Shown here piece after piece: positions 6,823 through 7,292 of a DNA stretch of 64,000 nt (position 1 is its first letter; the number at the start of each line of letters is the position of its first letter). Both the position numbers and the translations under genes were made by a program. A model generated the notes under the pieces. It was not told the DNA's origin and did no database searches. It saw only the letters and a list, made by a program, of their open reading frames with translations. This DNA is from Eledone cirrhosa (taxonomy: Eukaryota): the NCBI GenBank assembly GCA_964016885.1, contig OZ024743.1, positions 192,882,001 to 192,946,000 on the forward strand. The letters run 5' to 3'.

Positions 6823-7292
6823 ATAGGAACAAGTAAGACCCCGGGGTCTTACTTGTTCCTATTACCCACTCTACTTGTTCCTATTACCCACTCTACTACC
6901 CTAAGTATTGAGTACTTTGGTGCGTTATGGTCCACCTGGTTCCTTACCACATTTCCTTCGTTATCTAGCTCCTACCCCCGTAGTAGAGCACTTTCCGACC
7001 CTACCACGCCGTATCCAGACGTTTCCGCCAAGCTCAATTTCTTCACCCGCACCATGCGAAAACACAATATCGACTTCTCTACCAAGAACATCCCAATCCC
7101 ACTGAAAAAACTTTACCTTCGGATGCTCACGCCAAAAATCGATCTATTTGCGAAAAGACTTAGATGGAGAACTTAATATCTTAAAAAATTTTAGGGGTCT
7201 TACTTGTTCCTATTACCCACTCTACTACCCTAAGTATTGAGTACTTTGGTGCGTTATGGTCCACCTGGTTCCTTACCACATTTCCTTCGTTA
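6823..7292 (+). mobile_element. Penelope-like element 5' end with start of ORF and direct terminal repeats
   Basis: ATG at 7054 gives MRKHNIDFSTKNIPIPLKKLYLRMLTPKIDLFAKRLRWR, resembling the KNIP...RxRW N-terminus of PLE ORFs. Repeat 6843-6963 recurs at 7194-7292. Flanked by TA-rich tracts. Confidence 0.7.

Follow-up and report, generated by a model that had tools for sequence, protein, structure and literature searches.

In the genome of Eledone cirrhosa, we found a Penelope-like element (PLE) insertion of which all three arms terminate at +1, the cut predicted for the element's own hammerhead ribozyme. We favor a model, with a probability of roughly 0.78, where this insertion is reverse-transcribed PLE RNA whose 5' end was made by its own hammerhead, as a minor route beside the main one, in which copying extends to a start, likely capped, that lies 41 bases further 5'. 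The window, that is, the whole 64,000-nt stretch of contig OZ024743.1 that was analysed, contains further copies of the family, and these were compared with copies throughout the assembly; cleavage, capping and expression are what we infer from sequence.

The Insertion and Its Parent Element

Throughout, +1 denotes the first G 3' of GTC (the predicted hammerhead cut), and arm positions in the window were assigned against L027, a natural intact copy. The insertion at 6823-7292 is identified as a broken Hydra-clade PLE within (TA)n, with the following parts:

6823-6842, minus strand: inverted arm, element +20 to +1; tail-less 3' end (CCTAT) joined to upstream (TA)n
6843-7174, plus strand: direct arm, covering +1 to +310, with the 3' strand of stem I, the tail, the 5' UTR and the start of the ORF
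7054-7176, plus strand: first 40 codons of the PLE ORF (KNIP, RWR); the ATG is +190 in L027
7175-7193, plus strand: 19-nt A/T-rich filler at a template jump, between the two direct arms
7194-7292, plus strand: second direct arm, covering +1 to +99; its tail end, TTCGTTA, abuts downstream (TA)n

The original prediction described a 20-bp palindrome without a loop at 6843, and this is exact: 6823-6842 is the reverse complement of 6843-6862, with a spacer of 0 and pairing that extends no further. GGGGTCT is the start of both 6843 and, as had also been claimed, the second repeat at 7194. The PLE ORF start proposed at 7054 is likewise found, with an ATG opening 40 N-terminal codons of the element; the stop codon at 7174-7176 is a product of the junction. 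The direct arm contains a 22-bp tandem duplication (6850-6871/6872-6893). The filler is likely untemplated, and did not occur in the other 29 loci compared. With three arms at +1, this copy is best read as likely reverse-transcribed from cleaved RNA, on a template that would have covered at least +1 to +310: the 3' product of a cut pLTR with the ORF downstream.

Motifs and (TA)n targets support assignment of the element to the Hydra clade. The accessible text on this clade (Craig et al. 2021, PMC8557442) lists RT with a C-terminal GIY-YIG, RW[KR], DKT, a CxCx5C linker, no CCHH and a terminal CxxC/CxH, all shared here. YRDD followed by VIY..YIG (RT and C-terminal GIY-YIG) occurs in three copies (L128, L131, and L133); RW[KR] is present in four and DKT in all of the five natural copies scanned, with RWR in the window copy; and CxCx5C is found in L131 and L133, the linker CNCPDRSSC fitting this pattern. 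A single Cys lies between VIY and YIG, so CCHH is absent, and PCNLC (CxxC) and ACKH (CxH) stand near the protein end. The protein has 120 homologues (E <= 9.8e-33), and a Pfam scan returned no family. The same source gives as clade features (TA)n targets, a pLTR hammerhead, inverted 5'-truncated arms and an optional tail, again shared; the family displays the (TA)n insertion bias. Hydra-clade PLEs tend to be under 3 kb with tails of 30-40 nt (PMC8557442), whereas here the element is tandem with a unit of 3.6-3.7 kb (hammerhead-to-hammerhead spacing) and a tail of 79 nt. Fixed 5' ends at start site and cut, as found here, are not mentioned for the clade in the portion of PMC8557442 available. 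In the five copies read, the ORF is interrupted by frameshifts or stops in every one. Copies on (TA)n have two 3' ends, +20 and +99. Exact matches to +1..+19 number 21,752 genome-wide for the CTTA subfamilies, 4,548 for CATA/CCTA and at least 5,985 for CCGG.

A Predicted Hammerhead in the pLTR

Intact copies hold a predicted complete type I hammerhead, its core flanked by stems I, II and III and both of its ends lying in stem I. In order, the intact pLTR displays stem I ACCCC, the core UUGANAA, G10.1, stem II CGGCUA/UAGCCG with a long loop II and, 3' of this loop, GAAA, stem III CGGC/GCCG (closed by the palindromic loop GAGCUC), GUC and GGGGU. A CUGANGA-type core had been anticipated: literal CUGANGA was observed in none of the 46 intact pLTR rows (which include a few loci counted twice), and it is the variant UUGANAA, with U3:A8, that stands in 40/46, the other 6/46 being C3.A8. 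U3:A8 was also seen in 97 of the first 100 CCGG rows, obtained with a search pattern that fixed the other core letters, while the first 100 intact cores of the CATA/CCTA (CMTA) subfamilies gave, by eye, about 59 C3.A8 and about 34 U3:A8. The type I requirements are present: a Watson-Crick 3:8 pair, U4 G5 A6 N7, A9, GAAA, and UH. For CTGAGAA, a register with N7 deleted was considered; position 7 varies (G, A, T, C) and position 8 is constantly A, and the standard register was preferred. The U3-A8 core variant has been described in Schistosoma PLEs (PMC4209133). According to the accessible part of that paper (Cervera and de la Pena 2014), PLE hammerheads share with ours the type I form in the pLTR, a long helix II, G10.1-C11.1, a palindromic loop 3, and the U3-A8 variant; by comparison, here stem III has 4-5 bp and loop II, of about 33-37 nt, contains the likely start site.

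Folding and covariation lend modest support to the predicted structure. Paired cells amount to 90.7% of 420 in the hammerhead fold (two subfamilies), against 25-50% in slid controls. Two stem II pairs are compensatory between subfamilies, position 7 is free, and loop II has diverged; this covariation consists of two pairs between two related subfamilies, and pairs in which both partners differ are no more numerous than in shuffles (455/500). In constrained folding of L027, the one copy so treated, the hammerhead fold has -22.9 kcal/mol, 1.5 kcal/mol above the minimum-energy fold (-24.4), and folding z-scores are weak (-0.7 to -2.0). An Rfam scan of the window yielded microsatellite look-alikes and no hammerhead among the best 150 of 303 matches; of this family, the window holds half-ribozymes only. 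These are found in the following other copies of the family:

46591-46810, minus strand: majority-class copy, palindrome joined near -41; 3' half-ribozymes at 46690-46712 (minus) and 46773-46795 (plus)
20655-20820, minus strand: diverged CCGG-subfamily copy, broken near -40; 3' half-ribozyme at 20679-20701
57266-57329, plus strand: single-arm copy, about -45 to +20, in (TA)n
2957-3006, plus strand: short copy of the CCGG subfamily within (TA)n, reaching from about -29 to +20

Three of these sites had been cited as family copies with a cut predicted after GUC, and their sequence was confirmed: GAAAC-GGC-N9-GCC-GTC/GGG(G/A)TC, the slash before GGG marking the predicted cut, is found at 46690-46712 (minus), 20679-20701 (minus) and 57288-57310 (plus), and the same segment at two further sites, 2964-2986 (plus) and 46773-46795 (plus). 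The ribozyme 5' half is absent from every one of the copies originally cited, with breaks at about -26 to -45. Since the copy at 57266-57329 has one arm, ending at +20, this position can serve alone as a 3' end.

Other elements were noted alongside. Minimal hammerhead-like CTGATGA motifs at 958-1140, 560-640, 5020-5100, and 37500-37620 probably belong to other PLE families, and the 958/1082 pair is a head-to-head palindrome. A broken PLE of another family spans 31929-36260, with RT and GIY-YIG remnants at 33692-35373 (minus) and a 1.35-kb inverted copy (31929-33276 vs 34922-36260, 96%). Broken LINE-like elements lie at 21180-26486 (plus), with ORF1-like, endonuclease-like and RT-like frames by eye, and at 8834-10030. 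Elsewhere in the assembly, a half-ribozyme segment occurs head-to-tail with 257-bp spacing, in a retrozyme-like arrangement (L163/L164, G000:C1:27009509-27010095).

The Main 5' End

An anchor downstream of the cut matches 4,556 times, and breakpoints were read in the first 100 of these, which all lie on contig C1; one row (L121) was N-masked and dropped, leaving 99 readable, unselected arms. Breaks fall at -46..-33 in 68 of them, farther upstream in 11, at -31..-5 in 15 and at +1/+2 in five. X-drop ends lie a few bases too far out, and the -45 bin is mostly -41/-40; thus, given the 68/99 arms at -46..-33, the main boundary is -41. This position falls on the A of YTAGT/TCAGT, an initiator-like motif in loop II of the hammerhead. 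The -41/-42 break pattern has 1,810 matches genome-wide, and in the diverged CCGG subfamily the break position is again -41. Among 70 distinct sites joined directly to (TA)n, read by eye, G or GG precedes A-41 in 11 and a single A in three, where the element itself has C or T. Copying of a cap usually shows itself as an untemplated G at a 5' junction, and -41 is likely a capped transcription start. A recurrent -41 junction carries the extra G on both arms with one base between (e.g. C1:57960893 and C1:86726202 of G000), as expected if each arm carries a copied cap.

Two other signals were considered around this boundary. A TATA box 29-30 nt before -41 occurs in young subfamilies and is missing from CCGG, which leaves the initiator-like motif alone as kept. 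For a splice acceptor at TTTTCATTCAG, AG or G is retained in copies and there is no shared upstream exon, and this candidate was rejected. Transcription start sites inside pLTRs were already known, as the available text of two earlier papers indicates (PMC2377424; PMC8557442).

Breaks at the Predicted Cut

The five of 99 unselected arms that end at +1/+2 compare with 15 breaks over 39 flanking positions (Poisson p about 0.001), and in a second subfamily 7/100 arms, by eye, end there. The original prediction called for plotting breakpoints relative to the GUC site, and the counts give a sharp peak at GUC/GGGG instead of a uniform spread: genome-wide, the break pattern at +1/-1 has 736 matches among 21,752 copies, against 73 at -4/-5, 94 at +3/+4 and 39 at -2/-3, the last with a stricter letter, such that 39 would scale to about 58. 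Since 14 of the first 100 +1 rows represent intact copies that have five Gs, about 630 of the 736 are real, and the corrected peak stands 7- to 11-fold over neighbour positions; these artefact corrections come from visual reading of the first 100 rows, most of them on contigs C1-C3 (C1-C21 for CATA/CCTA). The CCGG subfamily provides a replicate: of 324 +1 matches, about 43 of the first 100 are real by eye, giving about 139, and a control at -4/-5 has 50 matches, about 30 of them real (by eye). From this peak, self-cleavage of the RNA appears probable; contigs of four runs include no piece across the junctions and bear neither way on it. The genomic footprint originally proposed is thus seen in the +1 peak and in the three-arm window copy, yet it does not stand as a general rule: cleavage would set about 5-8% of 5' ends, a minor route, most ends being at -41.

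A neighbouring repeat family speaks against the model. Its fragment at 6546-6727 carries a palindrome with 46-bp arms whose junction lies in stem III of a minimal hammerhead; in the same family, intact copies display a CTGATGA core, a 7-8 bp stem II and a tiny stem III (947 pattern matches). Despite its canonical core, no cut-site break was found in the first 100 of the 947 rows, and its short palindromes have no break at its cut (4/4). Thus, with no such break in these rows, the +1 footprint is not general.

Could the template end be real and yet not ribozyme-made, +1 being a weak second transcription start or a cut by a protein nuclease? The C/G at this position is a step from pyrimidine to purine, the run of Gs would mask a cap G, and an extra G at +1 in 3/42 arms is not clearly rarer than at -41. 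Nonetheless, the hammerhead fold had pointed to this site ahead of any count, it has no initiator-like motif, unlike -41, and its rate correlates with the core 60-70 nt upstream, such that we regard this explanation as quite improbable. As for that rate, the C3.A8-rich CATA/CCTA subfamilies have about 55 +1 ends in 4,548 copies (1.2% vs 2.9%, some 2.4-fold lower), a comparison confounded by differing subfamily age; palindromes with both arms at +1 still occur in them. A stronger cleavage in the ACTGG subfamily was also considered and discarded: its palindrome share tracks its copy number (7/100 vs 5/99). In a separate observation, a CCGG-subfamily arm that ends at +1 adjoins TTAGGG repeats (G000:C2:328792601).

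Palindromes and Template Ends

Short palindromes number 525 sites, the first 50 of which were classed by eye. Both arms end exactly at +1 in 21 (seven flush, 14 with 1-6 inserted bases); in the others, one arm ends at +1 in nine, seven are ambiguous through microhomology, six are centred on GAGCTC, and seven are of other kinds. The same junctions allow a different account of the peak, in which +1 is a hot spot of RT stalling or microhomology on uncleaved RNA, caused by the stem III hairpin, the run of four Gs or the self-complementary C/G, and the match to the cut is incidental. Junctions of the family are indeed often microhomologous, 6/50 short palindromes being centred on GAGCTC and 6/50 fitting the CGG repeat; the zero-spacer CCCC/GGGG has C at -1 in common, and stem III starts 2-3 nt upstream. 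Yet in 14/21 both-arm sites there are inserted bases and no C-1, and microhomology cannot account for these; a hairpin stall predicts -1 to -3, where just 39 matches fall; some arms meet (TA)n directly at +1; and the rate falls in subfamilies with a mismatched core but nearly the same stem III. Overall, a stall or microhomology seems improbable to us, and a template ending at the hammerhead cut remains the preferred reading.

In 77 unselected palindromic copies, 13/154 arms end at the cut, and both arms do so in five of the 77, against 0.55 expected (p 2.6e-4), which shows the two arms to be coupled. A tail-bearing arm is paired with an arm ending at +20 in 75/77, the former being required by the search anchor. 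The +20/+99 arm pairs fit two internal start sites on one RNA; cDNA fold-back fits too. The zero-spacer palindrome had been read as part of the self-cleavage footprint, yet a zero spacer is not specific to the cut: zero-spacer GACT/AGTC palindromes occur at -41 too, so that a flush junction marks the template end, not cleavage itself.

Long palindromes are unstable, and the +1 junctions might accordingly postdate insertion, through DNA collapse of longer palindromes, copying of a few founder junctions, or misassembly; one junction is in fact repeated six times in a C2 cluster near 276.98 Mb. However, the inserted bases vary among sites (T, A, TA, TT, AA, ATT, AAT), the sites are spread over many contigs and three subfamilies, +1 ends are also present in non-palindromic copies, and a collapse would not be expected to halt both arms at +1. 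We hold a post-insertional origin to be very improbable.

A Model for the Insertion

Under the hammerhead-cleavage model, transcription would start at the A of the initiator-like YTAGT/TCAGT in loop II. A start at this place would mean that the transcript 5' end has the substrate half of the ribozyme only; to form a whole ribozyme, the RNA would have to read through a pLTR downstream or pair with one. The endonuclease would open the (TA)n target, and its two ends would be primed at internal sites of one sense RNA, +99 and +20. Reverse transcriptase would then run off the RNA 5' end, with the cap copied as an extra G at -41, or would stop at +1 on cleaved RNA; in either case it would add a few untemplated bases, after which the two cDNA ends would be joined head to head. 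For the window copy, the +99 cDNA may have reached +1, jumped to +310, again reached +1 and joined the +20 arm.

More tentatively, it is possible that Penelope-like elements integrate through twin priming, in which two internal sites of a single sense RNA are used and each cDNA runs to the RNA 5' end and off it. The head-to-head copies, in their thousands, would then form a fossil 5'-end map of germline RNA; and the promoter inside the ribozyme would split it, such that fresh transcripts could not cut their own 5' end in cis, whereas read-through could.

Comparison with Other Retroelements

PLE hammerheads, the U3-A8 core, inverted pLTRs, tails, and ribozyme-set 5' junctions (R2, Perere-3) are already known. 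A literature search outside subscription papers and supplements retrieved no description of PLE insertions whose ends lie at the hammerhead cut, nor any of a loop II start site. In the accessible texts, in-cell cutting by Penelope hammerheads is described as unclear (PMC8557442; PMC4209133), and one of them states that in vivo evidence is absent for PLE hammerheads (PMC4209133), while here there is a genomic footprint. With Poseidon PAc of Anolis, as presented in the part of Frangieh et al. (2024, PMC11167929) at hand, the family shares two internal RT start sites that define the tail, an AT-rich target, and extension of both strands. Uncleaved RNA is the dominant PAc substrate (PMC11167929), a trait in common with the present family. 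Hammerhead cleavage was dispensable in that in vitro system, and the cut was neither the start nor the end of any RNA read according to the same portion of text (PMC11167929), which weighs against the cleavage model; here, on the other hand, about 5-8% of ends are at the cut.

Head-to-head Penelope palindromes of Adineta vaga (Arkhipova et al. 2013, PMC3846280) similarly display, in the sections available, inverted pLTRs, junction palindromes, and TATA-/Inr-like pLTR motifs. They were tentatively read there as self-priming on an antisense template, whereas here the palindrome centres are sense-strand 5' ends with a cap-like G. The cap-like G together with the cut-site ends favors a sense template for the palindromes over antisense self-priming (as outlined in the available part of PMC3846280). 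R2 (HDV-like) and Perere-3 (twister), from what is accessible of PMC8501958, also have genomic 5' junctions at the ribozyme cut; these are LINEs in which the cut defines the 5' end, in contrast with the hammerhead, minor class, and palindromes observed here.

Overall, the +1 junctions are likely a fossil record of a ribozyme working inside cells, and provide a countable genomic signal of cleaved RNA being copied, of how often this happens and of its dependence on the core. Identical break-pattern counting is applicable to any PLE family in any assembly. If the twin-priming reading is true, the copies of this family would read out the cap site, the in vivo rate of hammerhead cleavage and the effect of a natural core mismatch.
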